Positions 1,933 to 36,770 of a stretch of DNA of 64,000 nucleotides are shown here, piece after piece. Where the stretch lies: the NCBI GenBank assembly GCA_964016885.1, contig OZ024741.1:319610001-319674000 (forward strand), read 5' to 3'. Position numbers and translations under genes: made by a program. Each line of letters starts with the position of its first letter. Position 1 is the stretch's first letter. This DNA comes from Eledone cirrhosa (Eukaryota). The notes under the pieces were generated by a model, which saw nothing but the letters and a program-made list of their open reading frames with translations, had not been told where the DNA came from and did no database searches.

Positions 1933-2030
<98 letters not shown>

Positions 2031-2188
2031 TTGGAATAAATGCTCTGAAATAGCGATATATATGTGAATATAGACATAGAATATTCGAAAATATTCTGTA
2101 TGTTTATAATAAACATTTTGAAGACCTAATCGCTATAGAATAGAATACGTCACGTATTACAATTAGATTCTCGATAAAAGCAAGGGAA

Positions 2189-2231
2189 GTAATCTACGCG
2201 TTTCATTCTTGTTAGAAATCATCAGGACTAC
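2189..2231 (-). ncRNA. Type I minimal hammerhead ribozyme (identical copies at 2499-2541, 2809-2851, 3119-3161)
   Basis: Reverse complement reads GTAGTC-CTGATGA-TTTCTAACAAGAAT-GAAA-CGCG-TA-GATTAC. Confidence 0.85.
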
Positions 2232-3553
2232 ATATCCAGTGCTTTTATCGAGAATGACACAGCTAGAGACTTATAGAATACTTAGCTGTGTACAGGAACT
2301 GGTTTGAAAGAGCGGTTGCCGGTCCGGCAGAAATTAGAAATTGGAATAAATGCTCTGAAATAGCGATATATATGTGAATATAGACATAGAATATTCGAAA
2401 ATATTCTGTATGTTTATAATAAACATTTTGAAGACCTAATCGCTATAGAATAGAATACGTCACGTATTACAATTAGATTCTCGATAAAAGCAAGGGAAGT
2501 AATCTACGCGTTTCATTCTTGTTAGAAATCATCAGGACTACATATCCAGTGCTTTTATCGAGAATGACACAGCTAGAGACTTATAGAATACTTAGCTGTG
2601 TACAGGAACTGGTTTGAAAGAGCGGTTGCCGGTCCGGCAGAAATTAGAAATTGGAATAAATGCTCTGAAATAGCGATATATATGTGAATATAGACATAGA
2701 ATATTCGAAAATATTCTGTATGTTTATAATAAACATTTTGAAGACCTAATCGCTATAGAATAGAATACGTCACGTATTACAATTAGATTCTCGATAAAAG
2801 CAAGGGAAGTAATCTACGCGTTTCATTCTTGTTAGAAATCATCAGGACTACATATCCAGTGCTTTTATCGAGAATGACACAGCTAGAGACTTATAGAATA
2901 CTTAGCTGTGTACAGGAACTGGTTTGAAAGAGCGGTTGCCGGTCCGGCAGAAATTAGAAATTGGAATAAATGCTCTGAAATAGCGATATATATGTGAATA
3001 TAGACATAGAATATTCGAAAATATTCTGTATGTTTATAATAAACATTTTGAAGACCTAATCGCTATAGAATAGAATACGTCACGTATTACAATTAGATTC
3101 TCGATAAAAGCAAGGGAAGTAATCTACGCGTTTCATTCTTGTTAGAAATCATCAGGACTACATATCCAGTGCTTTTATCGAGAATGACACAGCTAGAGAC
3201 TTATAGAATACTTAGCTGTGTACAGGAACTGGTTTGAAAGAGCGGTTGCCGGTCCGGCAGAAATTAGAAATTGGAATAAATGCTCTGAAATAGCGATATA
3301 TATGTGAATATAGACATAGAATATTCGAATAATAATATAGACATAAAATATTCGAAAAATGTTTATTATAAACATACAGAATATTTTCGAATATTCTATG
3401 TCTATATTCACATATATATCGCTATTTCAGAGCATTTATTCCAATTTCTAATTTCTGCCGGACCGGCAACCGCTCTTTCAAACCAGTTCCTGTACACAGC
3501 TAAGTATTCTATAAGTCTCTAGCTGTGTCATTCTCGATAAAAGCACTGGATAT

Positions 3554-3596
3554 GTAGTCCTGATGATTTCTAACAAGAATGAAACGCGTAGATTAC
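3554..3596 (+). ncRNA. Type I minimal hammerhead ribozyme (identical copies at 3864-3906, 4174-4216)
   Basis: Stem I GTAGTC/GATTAC, core CTGATGA, stem II TTCT-aaca-AGAA, GAAA, palindromic stem III ACGCGT, predicted cleavage after GUA (3590). It is enclosed by a 16-bp helix ATTCTCGATAAAAGCA/TGCTTTTATCGAGAAT. Confidence 0.85.
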
Positions 3597-4356
3597 TTCC
3601 CTTGCTTTTATCGAGAATCTAATTGTAATACGTGACGTATTCTATTCTATAGCGATTAGGTCTTCAAAATGTTTATTATAAACATACAGAATATTTTCGA
3701 ATATTCTATGTCTATATTCACATATATATCGCTATTTCAGAGCATTTATTCCAATTTCTAATTTCTGCCGGACCGGCAACCGCTCTTTCAAACCAGTTCC
3801 TGTACACAGCTAAGTATTCTATAAGTCTCTAGCTGTGTCATTCTCGATAAAAGCACTGGATATGTAGTCCTGATGATTTCTAACAAGAATGAAACGCGTA
3901 GATTACTTCCCTTGCTTTTATCGAGAATCTAATTGTAATACGTGACGTATTCTATTCTATAGCGATTAGGTCTTCAAAATGTTTATTATAAACATACAGA
4001 ATATTTTCGAATATTCTATGTCTATATTCACATATATATCGCTATTTCAGAGCATTTATTCCAATTTCTAATTTCTGCCGGACCGGCAACCGCTCTTTCA
4101 AACCAGTTCCTGTACACAGCTAAGTATTCTATAAGTCTCTAGCTGTGTCATTCTCGATAAAAGCACTGGATATGTAGTCCTGATGATTTCTAACAAGAAT
4201 GAAACGCGTAGATTACTTCCCTTGCTTTTATCGAGAATCTAATTGTAATACGTGACGTATTCTATTCTATAGCGATTAGGTCTTCAAAATGTTTATTATA
4301 AACATACAGAATATTTTCGAATATTCTATGTCTATATTCATATATATATATATATG

Positions 4357-16324: not shown

Positions 16325-16941
16325 GTAACAGATGTTCATTTTTACTTGATTTTTGTGTATCTACCTGAATATGTGCAAGTGTGTATCTTTTATATAGGCA
16401 GGGAATTGAGTTATTAGACTGAGTTATTAGAATATTGGATAGAACATTTTGCAGTATTCATTCCAGCTCTCTGCACTCTGAGTTAAAAATCTGCCAGGAT
16501 CAACTTTTCCTTTCACCCTTTTGAAGATAAAGTACCAGTCCAGTATTAGGGTCGATTCGCCCTCTGTATTTTTTTCTTACTTTTTCTCTCATACTCCCTC
16601 TCTTTCTTTGGAAACAAAATGTCAGCTGTGTCCAGACCTAAAGTGGGAATGGGCTCAGCTAGTTTTAATATTCCCAAACACACACTGTATGTCACTATGG
16701 TACACCTATGACTCCATCAGGACTTATGGCTACATACATATATCTTATATAATAAAATGTATTTTGAGTGTTTGTGTGCATGATAGAATGAGAGAGAGAG
16801 AGAGAGAGAGAAAGAAAGAGAAAGAGAGACTTTTTGCCGACGTAAGAGAAACACAAAAATACCCTCTCAAACATTTAGCCTATATGTCAGTAGAAGTAAT
16901 AACCTGAAGATCTTAAATAGTATATTTAACTAGGTGGACCC

Positions 16942-19327
16942 ATGTATGGGCCCCACAAAGACCACAAGACAGTCGACGATCCGACAACAGGACCACCAAC
17001 AAGACCTGTATGCGGAGAAAATATAGCTAGCAACTACAGGATCTCCTACTTCCTCTCAATGGTTATACGCCCCATAATCAAGATGTCCCCAGATGTATGT
17101 GACAGTACAGAGGACTTCTTCAGTAGAATCAGTGAGTGCAACAAAAACAAAAACCTATCCAACTGCATAATAGGCAGCATGGATGTGGTATCACTGTACC
17201 CATCCATTAACATTGATTTTGCTGTGGAAAAATGTGTGGAGATGATCATTGAGAGTGAGGTGGAGTTCTGCGATGTCGACACAGACAAACTGGGCCTCCT
17301 ACTTAGACTTACCTATGACACTGACTACCTAGACAGCCATGACCTTAGACGTTTCTGCCCCAGTAGACCCATAAGAGGTAGACCCCCCCACCATAACCTC
17401 AATGGCAAAAAAACTCCCATGGGAAGGTGGATTGGGTGGACCAAAGCTATATGGACCCCCCAAAACAATGGTCAGGTAAGAAAAATGGTCGCACATGCAA
17501 TAGGGGCTAGTATCACAACTATCCTAAAGGGCCACATATTCAAATTCAACGAGAAGTTCTACACCCAAAATGAGGGAGCAGCCATTGGCATCAGCATAGC
17601 TGGTGACGTTGCCAACCTTTTTATGGTATGGTGGGAAAGGAGACTCAAATATCTCCTTGATGAGGGCTCCATAGACCTCATCATGTACTCTCGTTACGGA
17701 AACGACATCAATATAGTAATAAGGACATCCCCACAAGAGAGTACTAACAAGTTTGATTTAGAACGTAGCACAATGGAAAGCATCCAGCAGATAGCTAATT
17801 CCATACACCAGAGTATAACTGTAACTATCGACTACCCTTCCAAACACCCTAACAATAGACTACCTGTATTAGACACGGAACTCTGGATTAACACTATAGA
17901 CGAGAGAGTCCAAATTCTCCACTCACACTATGCTAAACCCATGGCCTCCAAATACGTGATACTCAAAAACTCAGCAATGTCCAGTAGTGCTAAGTTTAAT
18001 ATTCTGATCGCAGACTTGGTACGAGTGATGAAGAACGTGTCCCGCATGTGCGACCCAAAAGAGATGGAAAGACACATCCAACACTTCATCAACCACATGC
18101 AGTTCTCTGGCTACAACCAAAGAGACAGAATCAGAGTATACGAAGGAGCCACGGAGAAGTATAAGACCCTCATAGAACTGGACATGAAAGGAATTTGCCC
18201 ATTATACAGGAGCAAATCATGGAATAGATTAGATAGGACTAGACATAAGATAGGGAAAGCCGCCTCATGGGACGACAACCAGAGATACCAGAGTGTCATG
18301 TTTGTGGACGCTACTCCTGGAGTGAAATTAGCTAACCAGTGTAGAAAGGCCATGAGAAAGACCCACTTAAAGATTAAGGTGGTAGAAAAGCCAGGAACCA
18401 CCATAAAATCCCTGATCAGAAAAACCTACCCTTTTAAGAAAACCCACTGTACTAATAGGAAATGTATTATATGTAAAGTAAACCCCCGGATAAACTGTAA
18501 AACTAGAAATGTAGTCTATAGCATAAGATGTACAGAGGGTACTTGCAGAAACATAACAACAACATACATAGACGAGATAGCTCGTAGAACTAAAAGGACA
18601 AAAAACGGTTCAGTACTATATGAACATGCCAGACAACAACATGACAGTAACATAGACAACATAGAAATTAGAATAATATCTAAACATAGAAATGACCCAG
18701 CAGATAGGCAAATCAGAGAGGCCAGCGAAATAGAACTTAGAAGGCCAAGGCAAAACAGAAAAAATGAATGGAATAACAACACCTAAACAAACAATACTGA
18801 CATAAGAGAAGTATAAATAAATAAATAAATACATACACAAGCACAATAACAACAAACACATATAAACACACACTAGTAAACTAAGATAGAATACAATAAC
18901 CAATACACAGTCACCCAAATACGAACACACATCAAACACTATACACACGCAAACGCATGCGCAGAGAAGACAAAAAAAAATAAAATAAACAGACTAAATA
19001 AAGAAGGCGTAGGCATACAATACAATGGGAGGAAACATAATAGCACCACTGACGATGTTACAGATGTGCAACAAAAGAACTTTGTTAGACTATATATATG
19101 TTTGTGTCTATATTGTATCTGTATTTTTGACCGTTGGTCAGTCAATGGCAACATTGCAGACTGAATAAATTAAATTAACCGATATAAAAGACACAGAAGC
19201 AAAAACCAACCAAACAGTGAGTGTGTTCTGTTATTAATTCTGGCAATATTATTACACAAATATGACCCTCCCCAAGTATAACAATATTTGTTTCGACACA
19301 CGATTTCATATCAAAAACCTCGCAAAA

Positions 19328-19543: not shown

Positions 19544-19764
19544 GTTTCTATATATATATATATATAATTGTTTCTACTATTGGCACAAGGCCAACAATTA
19601 TCCCAGTGCATTACTGGTACTTTATTTTATCGACCCCGTAAGGATGAAAGGCAAAGTTAACCTTGGCGGGATTTGAACTCAGATCATAAAGGGGCGTAAC
19701 TCTATGCTGGAAAGCATGGTGTCCGACCCTCTACTGATACTGCCAATTCACCGCCAGACAGCAT

Positions 19765-20595
19765 ATTTATCAATGCCAGGACCGGTTGTATCTCAGCGCA
19801 CTCAATAGGCAATGTAAGATACATTCCCAGAGTATACACCTAGTTATTCGCTTCAATACAACACACGTAAAACGGGTGCCTATAATAGTTCCCGGACTTG
19901 AGTTTCGGCCACACTTAATGCAGCAGTAAGGTGCACTGCACCCTCTATCTGCATACATTATGCAACAATGCATAATCGGCGTATGTGGCTTCATCAGCGG
20001 GTATTACCTAATCAATAACCAATCGATCGACAGAATCCAAACCCCAGCCCATGCTGGATATGACTGTTTGTGACGGCTGACACCGTAAAGTGATTAGCAA
20101 CTGGAATCTGATACAATTCTGTCCCTCGACCAGCCACCTATTTACAAACCTTACGTGGTGGCGGGAGAATAGAAAACAAATATTTTCGTTCCCGTCAAAA
20201 GCATTCAGCCAACGTGTCTCAAACACAAATTAATAAGGAATGAAAAGATGGTTATTAGAAATAGCAGTCCCACATCGATGCATAATAGAATGGTAGCATT
20301 CGGCTCAGGTCTCCAAGTCCCATGGCTAGAGGAAAGCGATAGTAACAATGGTAGTGCCAAGAACCTTTAACGGACATTAAATGCCAGTATTTATTATAGT
20401 AGCTGGGTTGCGGCAGCCGTGTCTATTTCACAACTTAAAAGAGTGACAGATAAAATTGTATAACAACAGTCAATCACTATAAATATCAATGGTATTAGAA
20501 ACTCTGGTAAAATACCCCTAGCGACAGAAAAAAGTGGATAGCAGTTGCTATGTAGAGTCGATCTTTGTATCTCTTGATATTCAGCCAAGTGACGA
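19765..20595 (-). mobile_element. Probable PLE 3' end / pLTR fragment carrying an HHR
   Basis: Non-repetitive segment containing the HHR at 19891-20001; LAEYQEIQRS at its 5' side weakly resembles a PLE C-terminus. Confidence 0.5.
19891..20001 (-). ncRNA. Type I hammerhead ribozyme with 84-nt branched stem II
   Basis: CCCG-CTGATGA-aGCCACA...TGTGGCc-GAAA-CTCAAG-TC-CGGG, with a GUC cleavage triplet. Stem I extends TAATA/TATTA across a bulge. Confidence 0.8.
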
Positions 20596-22669: not shown

Positions 22670-25600
22670 TCACAAGAAATAAACAACTGGTGGAAACTAT
22701 CCGAAAGGACTCCACAATACAAACGGAAGGGAAAACCTTCCCCACTAACGACCCACCCCCAAACCTCAAACTTATTAGGGTAACAACCATACAGCTCGAA
22801 ACTTTAAAAAAGAACTTCCCACATGATGTGGGCCTCCCTTGCCAAAAGCCCCTTAACCGTGTCCTGCTAAAAGGATTCTCTCCATCCCCAAACACCCCCA
22901 ATCTGGACAAGGAGATCGAACAACCTGACCTCCAGGAAACGAAAAGGTAAGTGTTCCTGCCTTTTCTCTCCCTAACTCTTCTTCACCAACATGGCGACTA
23001 TACAAGTTGGATGTTTGAATGTACGTGGCCTGGGCATGCCCTGGAAACAGGGCCAGCTTTTAAATGATCTCAGGTCAGATTGTATAGAAGTGATAGCCAT
23101 CATCAAGTCCAGGATTCACGACAAGCAGCAGCTAACCCCCATGTTCAATGACTTTGAGATCTATGCATCTCTCTGTCAGCCAGGAGGTGGAGGGGGCGTT
23201 GCTGTTCTGTTTCGAAAAACTTGGATCTCAAAGCACAGACGATTCACTTAGACCCGGAGGGCAGCTTGATGGTCCTGTACGTGAATGGTAGTGAAGGTGG
23301 AGCTTTCAGTCTGGTGGCCATATATGCCCCAACTGGGACATCACGACCAGAGTTCTTCAAGCATCTGGAGCCATTCCTGGGAACGTCTCGCTCCTTAGTG
23401 TTAGCTCCTTAGTGTACCACTGTGGACGTGGAGCAGCCGCACTGGGTCTTCTAGATCATATTTAGAGAGATTTTTAATTAGACAGAATGATAAGGAAACA
23501 TTAAGCTGTCCACAAATGCACATCGTTGCCTATTCAGACCACAAATTAGTCACCTGTGTAGTCAACCTTGATAGAATACATAGACAGCGACCCAGATACT
23601 GGAAGCTAAACATGTCACTTCCGGCGCGTAAGGCCTACAGTAAATGGATTAGCACCTTAGTTAAGTGCCAGTTGACGGGGGCAATCGTCAACAACAGGTG
23701 GTGGAGCTCTCTCGAGAAAGCAATTAGAATAGAATCGATAGCATTTTGCAAGGAAGTAGCTTTAGAAAAAAACAAAACCGGAAAGGAACTGGTAGCTAAA
23801 GTAGAAGAGGCACTTAGGATGGCAGTACAGCTGACGTACTAGCGGCGAGAACGATGCTAGACCAGTTCTTCAACGTGAAAGACAAAGGTTGTATTGTCAG
23901 AAGTAGAACATGTGCTCTAAGAAACGAGGCAGCCAAAGCTCTTAGCTGGGCCCAAGTGGCAGAGGCGAAAAGTGGCACCAAATCCACAATTCGGTCTTTG
24001 CAAGACAAAGATGGACGCATTCTACTTGAATCCAACCAGATTTACACGGCCTTCCAGCAGCATTTTGCGCAACTGTTTGGGCAAAGCGATACATCGAGAG
24101 TGGTGATGGACTTCAGCTCCTACCTAGACAGTGTACCACGACTCTCGAGCATGGATGCAGAGAGCTGCAAAAAGCCGATCACAGCGGGTGAAATAGAAGA
24201 TGCCCTAGGCTGCTACGGGAAACACAAATCACCCAGTTTAGATGGTCTACCCTATGAGGTTTACATAGGCATGCCAGACTTGTTCACTGGTGTCCTCAAA
24301 GCGGTCTACTGCAACTGGCAGCAGAAAGGAAGGATTGCCAGTTCTGTAGGCAGAGGCGTAGTAACGCTGATCAGGAAAGATGAGAACAAGGGGGATGACA
24401 TAAGCAATTTCAGACTCATAACTCTGCTCAACACAGAGTTAAGATTTTGGCCAAGGTGTTAGCAGCGAGGCTGGCACTTGTCGTCGAGAACCTGGTAGGG
24501 GAAGCGCAAACGTGTGCAATCCCGACCAGGTCCATACACGACAACCTCCACCTCATGCGATACATCATAGAGAGGGTAGGGTGTAAACCTGGCTTCGGTG
24601 GGGCTCTGATCAATTTAGATCAGTCTAAGGCATTTGATAGGGTCGACCATCATTACTTGGAAGCGGTTCTCAAGGCGGCCGGCTTCGGTCCCGTCTTCAG
24701 AAGCTGGATCATGCCATGCACACCAACATCTGCTCGGCAGTCAAGGTGAATGGCTTCCTATCAGAGCCATTCCAAATCATGCCTTCCATCTGTCAGGGAT
24801 GCCTTCTCTCCGCCATTCTGTATGTACTGACTCGCGAGCCATTACTGTGGAAGTTGGAGTTGTTGCAGGGCATCCCGATCGAACCAGGACTGCGGAAAGC
24901 AGCGTCAGCCTGTGCCGACGACATAACCGTAATGGTGTCGAAAACCTCGGAAATCGGGGTAATCGGCAACCTATTACAGGAATACAAAACCTTGACAGGA
25001 GCAAGACCAAACCCAAACAAGTCTGTCGGTTTGCAACTCGACACATGGAGAGGAAAACCGATGCCTTCTGACAGTGTCACTGGACGCTGGACGGAAGGAC
25101 CGGTGAAATTGCTTGGGGTCTTGTTTGGTCCAGACCTCCAGGTGGACAAGAACTGGAGGTGTTTGTACTCATCCAGAAGTGGGCTGAGTGGAAACTCACC
25201 TTGAAAAGTCGAGCGGAGATGGCGAACACTTACATAGCATCTGTCATCTACTACCGCTTGACAGCCGTGCCTTGTCCATGTGAATACCTCACCAAAATGG
25301 AGCGCCTACTCTTCAAGTTCCACTGGAAGAAACAGGCTCCATTGGTGAGGAGATCCATCTGCTGTCAACACCCTTCTAACAGAGGGCTGGGCATCCCGAG
25401 GCTGATGATGTGCAAACACGTGCTGAGGCTATGCCATCTCCAGGTATTCCTGACCGGTGAAAAAGTGTGGCTGTCATTTGTGAGACAAGCTCTTCCACAA
25501 CTCGTCTCACTAACAGAGCTGCAGTCCTGGGTCAAGCGAAGACCAAAAATGGGTGCCTGGCACCTCGAGTGCCTTCAGGCGCTCACAGCCCTCTACGAAG

Positions 25601-26545
25601 CGGAAACGGCAATCAGCGGAGACTCCACTTTGAAATTCTATAGTGGATTAGTGGAGGATAAGTGCGACGACGTTCTCGAGGAAACTCTAGGCATCGAGGA
25701 GGACGAACTGACCAGTCTGTTCGGGAGGACTTTCCGTCCAGGGCCTATGGATTACTTCCAGAGGTCTCTGGCCTGGCAGTGCTACCAAGGTGCTCTACCA
25801 GTTCGAGACAAAATCTACAGGCACGGACGCCCTGGCAGAGATCCTGCCAAAAGGACCTGTCCAAGATGCGAGCAGGACATCGAAACCATTCTGCACACAA
25901 TTGTTCAGTGCCCAGGGGTGACCGACCTGTGGAATTATGTCGAACAGCTACTGTCACGTGTGGGACGCATCCAGTTGTCAGCCGAGTCCATCGTGAGGAT
26001 CACCCCGCTGCCTTTATTTAAGAATGAAGGAGAGGCGGTTTTCCTCTGTCTGGTGGCTATGGTGAAAGAGGTAATATGGTGGACGAAGTTAAAAGGACTG
26101 AGGGCAAACACCTTTCTCTCTGGACAACAACTTATCCCCTTCTTTAAGTACCACTTCAAAAGGAAGGTGAGAGTGGAGAGAGAGGTGCTAGACCCCAGTA
26201 AATTCGCTGAAAGGTGGGTGAATGTGCCGAAAATGGCCCGAGTGAATGGGCCTTCTCTGTATATAAACCTGTAGGTTGAGGAAGATAAACAGAGGGAAGA
26301 CAGGAATACCTACAAAACGTGTTCCTGGTGTTGAGGGTTGTTCTATCCATGGGGTGTAAAACAACCCTGCAGTAACGTTCCCCTCTATTGAGGATTTCAA
26401 TTGTTATTTTGTTATTTTATTATATATAGTTTATTGTTATTTATTAATGTTAAAGTTATATGATTGTTATGTAAAACCCCCTCTGTCACGTCTTGTAATG
26501 TCCCATTTTTGTACGCCCTCTGTGGCAAATAAAGAAAGATATCTA
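22670..26545 (+). mobile_element. Tx1/L1-clade non-LTR retrotransposon, near-complete ORF2 (APE, RT, C-terminal Zn knuckle), frameshifted
   Basis: MATIQVGCLNVRGL (APE start), SDHKLV, YWKLN, KSPSLDGLPYE, NFRLITLLNT, LDQSKAFDRVDH, ACADD, CPRC...ETILHTIVQC; 3' AATAAAGAAAG. Confidence 0.9.
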
Positions 26546-31605: not shown

Positions 31606-31734
<129 letters not shown>

Positions 31735-31848
31735 ATATCACGCTGAAAACACCGGTTCTCATCCGATCACCGAAGTTAAGCAACGTCGACGTCGAGCCTA
31801 GTTAGTACGTAGACGGGTGACCGCTTGGGAACCCTAGGTGCCGTAAGC
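31735..31848 (+). pseudogene. 5S rRNA-derived pseudogene, slightly 5'-truncated
   Basis: CACGCTGAAAACACCGGTTCTCATCCGATCACCGAAGTTAAGCAACGTCG...GTTAGTAC.TAGA.GGGTGACCGC.TGGGAA matches invertebrate 5S; contains a 6-nt duplication (CGTCGA twice). Confidence 0.88.
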
Positions 31849-31909
31849 GTTTAATTTTTGTCTAGCATGGAAGAACGGACGTAAAACGGTGATGATGATA
31901 TATATAAAT

Positions 31910-34509: not shown

Positions 34510-36770
34510 GGAAGTGGTTACACAACAGTTAGTTCACCATACCGAGAACAATTGTTTCACCTTAGCAGATCCTCAGCTCGGAATGGGCATGGTTATAGGA
34601 ACAGGAAGGACAACCGTATGAACGCGCATGCGCAGAAACCCGATCACTTCACACAGGCAATACTAGACTGCGTGCAAGAGGTGTAAGGGAGATAACTGCG
34701 AAAGTCTGAAAAGTTTCTAGGTTGAAAATAAAATTACAAAGAACGCTATTACTTCTAAATATAAGAAATCTAACCCTATGGCCTACCACGACATTAATAC
34801 AGAAGCCAAGGAACTTGCCGCCGACCTTAAGGTAGATAAGAAGCTACAATCTCTAGCTAAGTGGGAGGCGTTCCTCACCCTGAAAGATCACAAGATAGAT
34901 TTTACCCCACATGTAGACTAATAAACCCGGCACGCAGAGATATGGGACTAGTCAGTAAGGCCATACTTAGAAACATAGTTAAGACCATTAGGACCAAGTC
35001 CAACCTGCCCCAGTGGGAGAACAGCGACTCCGTAATTAAGTGGTTTAACTCCTTAAAATCCCAAAAAGCGAAGTTCACACAGTTTGACATTGTCGATTTT
35101 TACCTGTCGATATCAGAGACCCTGTTAAACAAAGCGTTGGACTTCGCTACCACTTATACCACGTCAATGGTTTAGACAGGGAAATTATCGCTCACTGCCG
35201 GAAAACCCTCCTCTTCAACGACGGAGTAGCCTGGGCAAAGAAGTCTACATCTTCAGACCTGTTCGACATCTCCATGGAATCGTTTGACAGTGCTGACGTA
35301 TGTGACCTGGTTGACCTATTTATTTTAAACATATTACGTGTTAGATTCCCGGACTTCACACAGGAATATACCGCGACGATGGACTGACTTTATCAAGCCA
35401 TAAAAGTGGTTATGACCTCGACCGGTTTAAAAAAGACTTAGCTTCTACCTTCAATGAGTTAGGACTTAGGATAACAGTAGCCACCAACCTCTCTAGCGTA
35501 AATTTCTTAGACATTAATTTAGACCTTCGCACACCCACCCACAGACCCTTCCATAAGCTAAACGAGAAACTCAATTACATTCACAAGGACTCATGCCACC
35601 CTCCCACTGCTTTTAGAAACTTTGTTAAGAATATCAGTACTAGAATCTCAAACCTCTCCTCTAATAAGGCTATCTTTGACAGGGCGGCACCCTACTATAA
35701 CACGGCGTTGGCTAACAGCGGTTTCTCACAACCTATCACCTACTCTCCCACTAGCAACAACACCATTAAGAAAAGTAAGCGCAACAATAGACAAACTATC
35801 TGGTTCTCTCCTCCCATCTCACTCAACATTAAAACCAATGTAGGAAAGAAATTTCTAGCCCTCTTAGATAGACACTTTCCCATAGGTCATAAATACCGCT
35901 CCATCTTTAACCGACACAAAGTTAAACTAGGATAGTCCTGCGCTAAGAACATGAAGGCCCACATCACCAGCAGCCGTAGGAGCAACACCCCACCAGGGTG
36001 CTCTTGCCGTAAGCCTGCGGCTTGCCCCCTTCAACAGCAATGCAACACACCAGCTGTAATTTATGAAGCTGTGGTCACTTTCAACCGACCAAACGAATCA
36101 CAGGAGGTCAAATCCTATGAGGGCATGGCGGAGGGCCGATTTAAGAAACGTTTCCTGAACCACCAGTCCACCTTCAGGTACTCGGACAGACGTTCATCCA
36201 CGAAACTCGCGAGCCACGTATGGTCCCTCAAGGACTCAAGTATAGACTACTCCATTCAATGGAAAGCCATCACTAAGTCCAAGCCATACACAAGGGGAAA
36301 ACTGACGTGTGGCTTATGTATTGACGAACGAATAACTATTCTAAAGAGATTACGCAACAATAGACAAACTATCTGGTTCTCTCCTCCCTTCTCACTCAAA
36401 TGAGAAATGAATTTTTCACACGTTGTCCACACGTCGCCAAACACCTATTGCATAACTACAAGGCTCTGGACTGATTCTTTGTTATTTTATTTTCAACCTA
36501 GAAACTTTTCGGACTTTCGCACTTATCTCCCTTACACCTCTCACATGCAGTCTTGTATTGCCTGTGTGAAGTGACCGGGTTTCTGCGCATGCGCGTTCAT
36601 ACGGTTGTCCTTCCTGTTCCTATAACCATGCCCATTCTGAGCTGAGGATCCGCTAAGGTGAAACAATTGTTCTCGGTATGGTGAACTAACTGTTGTGTAA
36701 CCACTTGTACCTAACTCGTCCCACAGACTGAGTGCTCTACCACTACAGATATTACCTTCCCGTGTTCCAC

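Follow-up and report, generated by a model that had tools for sequence, protein, structure and literature searches.

A predicted hammerhead ribozyme with a branched stem II domain in a non-coding, Penelope-type repeat family of Eledone cirrhosa

The window, that is, the whole stretch of 64,000 nucleotides analysed here, contains on its minus strand a hammerhead-like motif in which the core boxes CUGAUGA (19997-19991) and GAAA (19906-19903) lie 84 nt apart (19990-19907), raising the question of what kind of element carries such a motif and what so large a stem II is doing in it. A sequence-only reading of the window had proposed a hammerhead with an 84-nt insert, a connection with Penelope-like elements (PLEs), and a role of the insert in recognition by the PLE reverse transcriptase (RT) or as an allosteric switch; all the motif pieces that it listed were found in place on the minus strand. 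From stem I to stem I, the motif spans 19891-20001, with the CUGANGA, GAAA and UH core elements all present and in order. Three helices surround the core, which is open at stem I: a 4-bp stem I formed by CCCG (20001-19998) and CGGG (19894-19891), a 7-bp stem II, and a stem III (19906-19896 together with the GAAA box) that in the window copy has merely 2 bp and a 4-nt loop, the alternative being an 8-bp intermolecular helix. Cleavage is predicted after GUC (19895-19894), based on the hammerhead consensus and on the 5' ends of short genomic copies.

The 84 nt fold into a single three-way junction. The basal stem II (5' strand 19989-19983, pairing with 19914-19908) and one unpaired base on each side leave 68 nt for the added domain, so that the earlier figure is correct as the distance between the boxes, not as the size of an insertion. 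This domain comprises a 6-nt junction strand (NNGCCG, 19982-19977, delimited from the alignment of copies and by inference), hairpin 1 with 8 bp and a 4-nt loop (19976-19957), and hairpin 2 with 16 bp, two bulges and a 3-nt loop (19954-19918), the 1-nt loop previously drawn for the latter being unable to close. The unpaired bases between core and stem II are an A and a C, and the G10.1-C11.1 pair consequently does not abut the core. At -37.2 kcal/mol, the minimum free energy structure is identical to the centroid (z -4.59), and none of 200 shuffled sequences folded equally well. In a context of 400 nt, stem II has pair probabilities of 0.92-0.99 and the domain a single dominant fold; as a monomer, stem I (P about 0.27) and stem III (P at most 0.03) are poorly populated. 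The Rfam hammerhead model RF00163 scores the motif at 16.7 bits, with an E-value of 0.73 and 75 nt left unaligned, against a gathering threshold of 34; at that threshold, the window hammerhead is absent from the Rfam matches, the only one in the window being a 5S-like piece. The expectation that a large structured domain in stem II would hide such a hammerhead from standard searches is thus borne out. Taken together, sequence and modelled fold identify the locus as a predicted type I hammerhead with an unusually large, branched stem II domain, the only long-spacer hammerhead that a generic scan found in the whole 64-kb window.

The motif lies within a 5'-truncated copy of a ~840-bp non-coding repeat (19759-20457, minus strand), which corresponds to unit positions 104-818 at 88.7% identity to a full unit by blastn, its extents being taken from 30 paralogues. 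The repeat is abundant: a first look at the 3.0-Gb genome gave 2426 candidates, all 40 of the matches scored were 93-100% identical over 151 nt, and the exact motif pattern occurred 208 times, compared to 0 for the reversed control. The long stem II domain is therefore a trait of a multi-copy family and, as discussed below, of several unrelated families as well, which goes beyond the sequence-only reading. Among the 30 copies, 28 stop at position 832-846, about 155 nt beyond the cut site, whereas the 5' ends are spread over positions 1 to 559. The usual surroundings of the insertions are (TA)n tracts. When 30 copies were chosen for possessing the head of the unit, 20 were found directly on the end of a preceding unit, forming partial tandems, 4 more joined a preceding unit across a SINE-like piece, and none continued into a PLE open reading frame. 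Some tandem loci (e.g., L028, L034 and L057) contain two ribozyme motifs, and within the 3-kb loci no tandem array extended beyond about 1.6 units. No stop-to-stop frame exceeds 117 codons in the three units inspected, and the longest frame is not the same from copy to copy; tblastn with two PLE proteins gave no match in the unit. The unit head bears a GT...AG intron-like segment, as does the head of an autonomous element of the same genome (L154, see below).

A fixed 3' end, variable 5' truncation, a microsatellite target and an intron-like head are traits of PLE derivatives, and the proposed PLE connection was accordingly the right idea; a non-coding unit shorter than about 1 kb with a type I hammerhead and head-to-tail tandems is, in turn, typical of animal non-LTR retrozymes. 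By its sequence, the repeat qualifies as a non-autonomous unit and an animal retrozyme as defined in the parts of PMC7229834 and 10.64898/2026.07.22.740005 available to us. No autonomous PLE sharing the unit sequence was present among the 30 copies with a head, 29 members of a neighbouring endonuclease (EN) family and 40 loci of other long-stem families, the best 40 candidates being scored in each search. Two candidate partners were rejected. A GIY-YIG fragment fused to the motif in one locus (L061) belongs to another family, in which the motif occurs in 0 of 29 other copies, and an RT-EN frame within the window (16930-18786) lies on the opposite strand and has nothing in common with the unit. 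The latter frame (plus strand, 618 codons) carries RT and GIY-YIG-like motifs of Penelope-like type, with catalytic motifs that look decayed; it is unlike the Hydra-like protein of L154 (blastp E at least 0.26) and represents another PLE type.

In the window copy, the final ~20 nt of the unit are replaced by a SINE-like piece, part of a separate repeat joined to its 3' end (19564-19758, minus strand) and represented by 13 pieces in the window. In many loci (L174, L180, L199, L201, L082 and L086), this repeat, with varying 5' ends, is positioned precisely where the tail of one unit meets the head of the next or where a unit ends on its 3' side, which suggests that the two share a TTA/TA target. 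At L142:880-1061 lies the 3' part of a copy from a more diverged sister subfamily, with about 78% identity and a GUA site. This sister subfamily also appears as loose ends in DNA sequencing runs, which gave no linked sequence for covariation.

How well is the domain kept within the family? We aligned 90 copies, drawn from 60 loci of the DNA searches and 40 pattern matches chosen for diversity, with 19 partial or duplicate matches dropped first. The copies form a ladder of subfamilies, which differ by 3-5% from their majorities at non-CpG sites. Paralogues had been named earlier as a check on the core and stem pairings, and both are kept: 94.6% of alignment cells are paired, compared to 27-49% when the partners are slid, with 90.8% for stem I, 97.9% for hairpin 1 and 93.5% for hairpin 2, and the core is intact in 42 of 51 copies from the DNA search. 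The stem II pair 19986/19911 is A-U in 51, G-U in 11 and G-C in 23 of the 90 copies, a compensatory change that is a single inherited event, and a pair-level shuffle test for covariation was not significant (185/500). All 6 of the transitions fixed between subfamilies in stem II and the domain preserve pairing, compared to 53 of 85 private ones (P 0.06). Within the two hairpins, covariation is one-sided only; hairpin 1 has an A-U to G-U change in 24 of 90 copies, and one position of hairpin 2 is G-C, G-U or U-U depending on the subfamily.

Two related subfamilies (13 of 90 copies) lack the basal stem II G-C pair, yet were amplified, and one subfamily has fixed the U-U mismatch in hairpin 2. 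These cases favour an explanation in which the ribozyme is a passenger whose stem II drifted to a large size as cleavage was unneeded for transposition, the fold being a by-product and cutting occurring rarely or never. Published work points the same way, in that core mutants leave PLE insertion in vitro unaffected in the experiments accessible to us from PMC11167929, and 8 of 9 retrozyme dimers did not cleave according to the available part of 10.64898/2026.07.22.740005. On the other hand, subfamily-diagnostic changes in the core, stem I or palindrome number none, compared to 35 or so in the flanks, which speaks against relaxed constraint of this kind.

The palindrome in question is stem III, which in 39 of 51 copies from the DNA search is a perfect 8-nt self-complementary sequence, revealing a ribozyme of the palindromic dimer type, a feature that the sequence-only reading had not recognised, nor that the window copy is decayed. 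In the latter, a CpG-type change at 19899 breaks the palindrome, and the predicted energy of the self-duplex rises from -10.7 kcal/mol in the family form to -1.6 kcal/mol. Because hammerheads with palindromic stem III cut as dimers, and slowly, as reported in the portion of PMC4209133 at hand, and because a candidate docking sequence (see below) is lost as well, the window copy is probably weak or dead.

If the family form did cut, some genomic copies might begin at the cut site. We collected copies starting within a 17-nt interval around the cut and next to TATA, and classified the junctions by eye; of 21 loci, 18 had clean ends after removal of 2 with internal deletions or mutations and 1 with a complex junction. 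The base that follows GUC, or the next one, is the starting point of 7 of these 18 short copies, a result with P 0.003 given that 2 of the 17 positions qualify. When ends with TA microhomology are set aside, 7 of the remaining 10 map to the cut or cut+1 (P 0.008, with 2 of the 7 positions qualifying). The copy in L180 starts exactly at the cut and continues across an additional complete unit. In a control interval, 30 distinct loci were found and 20 fetched, yielding 11 true ends, all at TA microhomology, the control being weak in that it has only two comparable positions. Five more of the 18 ends, from independent copies (L241, L242, L243, L252 and L187), coincide with 1-nt microhomology at position 112, within the loop of stem III and 4 nt ahead of the cut, and two of the 18 fall at the base of stem II, indicating that RT stalling at helices can mimic the cut-site signal. 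We interpret the clustering of 5' ends at the predicted cut as suggesting that the family did cut itself, and the enrichment weighs against the passenger explanation. In at least 11 tandem copies the sequence continues across a second ribozyme, which implies that cutting is slow or that the products are re-ligated; the traversal of two ribozymes by many cDNAs is again what a passenger would show.

Long stem II domains are not confined to this family. Across the genome, the core pattern gave 12,605 matches with a 9-39-nt spacer (control 382), 2,532 with a 45-75-nt spacer (control 284) and 6,593 with a 76-106-nt spacer (control 219), these being raw matches with some double counts; the long-spacer matches thus number 9,125 compared to 12,605 short ones, or about 40% of core-pattern matches. 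Among 40 loci picked by eye, stem I reaches at least 4 bp in 20 of 29 motifs of the longer class and in 4 of 24 of the shorter, with four of these counts relying on a second GUC. Unrelated families carry stem II domains of 47-104 nt without mutual sequence likeness, a spread that fits drift and thus the passenger explanation. A 91-92-nt rod-like stem II (Y1) is found in both of the 98%-identical pLTRs of an element coding for a 777-codon RT-GIY-YIG protein (L154:815-4465, L153 and L169), which is near-intact and autonomous, has a 3.55-kb unit and is very abundant among the pattern matches. Judged by eye against a published alignment, the RT3-4 region of this element appears to resemble Hydra; sequence searches of Pfam, NCBIfam and PDB named neither of the two PLE proteins. 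Another family has a 47-nt stem II domain around a decayed ORF. The non-coding family Y2/Y4, in which blastn detects no likeness to the ~840-bp unit, nevertheless shares with it the basal stem, a GCC-containing junction strand and two hairpins, and its 9 sequences display compensatory changes in the basal stem and in both hairpins. Compensation in a matching architecture weighs against a fold that is a mere by-product and, weighing both sides, we regard the passenger explanation as unlikely. Five loci (L155, L156, L164, L168 and L172) represent a non-coding family of tandem units of ~700 bp, whose stem II measures 94-98 nt and has two hairpins; the 5' flank is complementary to a loop of hairpin 2 with one compensatory change, a candidate pseudoknot.

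The presence of large stem II domains in the pLTRs of autonomous elements would also agree with a protein-binding handle, to which the PLE RT-EN or a host factor attaches and thereby chaperones or gates cleavage of the RNA. In line with such a function, the domain is kept in all subfamilies; a genome-wide pattern for a short-stem form, considered as a possible ancestor of the family and rejected as such, gave 2 matches, both with deletions that break stem II. In addition, one PLE hammerhead cuts only in the presence of its protein, as described in the accessible part of PMC11167929. However, no sequence or shape is common to the families, the domain being a rod in Y1 and a junction in the ~840-bp family and Y2/Y4, and the same genome contains the short-spacer motifs counted above, about 12,600 of them. 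Copies whose 5' end lies at the cut, or beyond it in the 3' direction, do not include the domain and yet were integrated, which weakly disfavours the RT-recognition module envisaged in the sequence-only reading. We consider a protein handle improbable.

A third possibility is that the domain controls when the ribozyme cuts, either allosterically, as a switch, or by helping two RNAs to dimerise. Hairpin 2 is almost perfectly palindromic, and a dimer joined through it lies 11.6 kcal/mol below two monomers, but structure-preserving permutations did as well in 10-13 of 60 cases for three copies and in 43 of 60 for a fourth, and 11 motifs of other families show no excess dimer gain. A switch might operate through GGCG, which in typical copies lies upstream of stem I and has two potential partners, the CGCU adjacent to the core and the junction strand; the alternative pairing, however, is without covariation, and the domain has one dominant fold, with no ligand or alternative state seen. 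The allosteric role suggested earlier thus found no backing, and regulation of either kind appears very improbable.

Our results point instead, in our judgement with reasonable probability, to a dimer-type hammerhead near the 3' end of a repeat of ~840 bp that encodes no protein and likely depends on the RT-endonuclease of a PLE, probably of Hydra type, for copying in trans, with the 68-nt domain being likely a tolerated, weakly selected extension of stem II and not a switch. The units stand in (TA)n, either singly and truncated at the 5' end or in partial head-to-tail tandems, and their 3' end is fixed; judging from the PLE literature, the RT would start at this end before proceeding toward the 5' end. 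The palindromic stem III would bring two ribozymes together, and cleavage after GUC would be slow; most RNAs would be copied uncut or after re-ligation, and some cDNAs would run off at the cut. The domain appears to fold by itself and to close the 7-bp stem II, such that the core can form, and subfamily changes seem mostly to keep its pairs. The simplest reading is that of a self-folding extension that keeps stem II closed. More speculatively, the junction strand may dock against the sequence that precedes the short stem I, replacing the usual loop I-loop II contact: in typical copies (subfamily A), NNGCCG is complementary over 4 bp to the GGCG upstream of stem I. This candidate pseudoknot shows no covariation and loses one pair in subfamily B, and the window copy has lost the docking sequence. 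A bolder view, possible in our opinion though rather doubtful, is that of a large unseen class of active natural hammerheads, in which about four in ten core motifs of this genome have 47-104-nt structured stem II domains that evolved repeatedly in Hydra-type PLEs and retrozymes, the branched form would swap the loop I-loop II contact for a junction-to-flank pseudoknot, and the cut site would be fossilised in genomic 5' ends.

The element type is already known, as an animal retrozyme or PLE hammerhead, and the long, branched stem II is a new structural variant of it. As in the animal non-LTR retrozymes characterised in the available parts of PMC7229834 and 10.64898/2026.07.22.740005, the unit is non-coding, falls within their range of 51-972 bp, occurs as monomers and tandems, and has a type I hammerhead with a short palindromic stem III and a proposed PLE origin. 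Unlike these, the ~840-bp family has a three-way junction and 84 nt between the core boxes, consists mostly of 5'-truncated solos and partial tandems, and is known here from genomic DNA alone. The Hydra-clade PLE hammerheads (PMC8557442 File S2, as far as available) similarly lie near the 3' end, target (TA)n, and have a 4-6-bp stem I, a stem III of the ACUC-(N)-GAGU type and one additional base flanking stem II on either side, but those listed have short stems II with 3-10-nt loops, and the ~840-bp unit differs also in having no ORF. The nearest printed precedent for an enlarged stem II in the material at hand is provided by PLE-X1_sMoe and PLE-X1_sTam of spike mosses, marked as deviating in the same file, with loops II of 35 and 29 nt; their core boxes are separated by no more than about 53 nt, they are targeted to plant rDNA, and they come with no description of a branched fold in the portion available. 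The minimal PLE hammerheads of PMC4209133, in its accessible part, share a 7-8-bp helix II, a short helix I, an unpaired base 5' of stem II and a palindromic loop 3, and act in dimer mode with low activity; their loop 2 is simple and carries no added domain. In the discontinuous CLEC2 hammerhead, as presented in the part of PMC6155905 at hand, a natural core likewise survives a large insertion in one helix, although that ribozyme is of type III, with 150-1500 nt in helix I, and is a single-copy mRNA element and not a transposon. In the accessible parts of this literature, no long or branched stem II is described for animal PLE or retrozyme hammerheads; the supplements of 10.64898/2026.07.22.740005 and PMC4209133, as well as Lunse et al. 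2017, may bear on this point.

The core search in PMC8557442, according to its available part, used a spacer of 7-17 nt. Short-stem-II descriptors or Rfam models miss long-stem motifs, such that the ribozyme content of some animal genomes may be underestimated, and claims of 'ribozyme-less' elements may likewise be affected. Given that the accessible part of PMC11167929 reports no RNA reads ending at the PLE hammerhead site, counts of genomic 5' ends at the predicted cut offer a cheap test of PLE hammerhead cutting in vivo, modestly positive in the ~840-bp family. A natural three-way junction on stem II also lends itself to tests of how the core is supported by peripheral domains.

Several other features of the window deserve mention. 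At 2030-4349, a very young 310-bp tandem repeat, with units 99% identical, forms two inverted arrays in (TA)n, and each unit has a short-stem hammerhead of type I with a GUA site, 7 motifs in all, scoring below the Rfam gathering threshold. Short hammerhead-like motifs with palindromic stem III occur in inverted orientation at 34547-34576 (minus strand) and 36642-36671 (plus strand), about 2 kb apart. The 5S rRNA-like copy at 31725-31849 (plus strand, 68.8 bits) adjoins a TA tract and is probably a retroposed pseudogene, and broken pieces of a LINE-like ORF2 with a zf-RVT match extend over 23405-26274 (plus strand).
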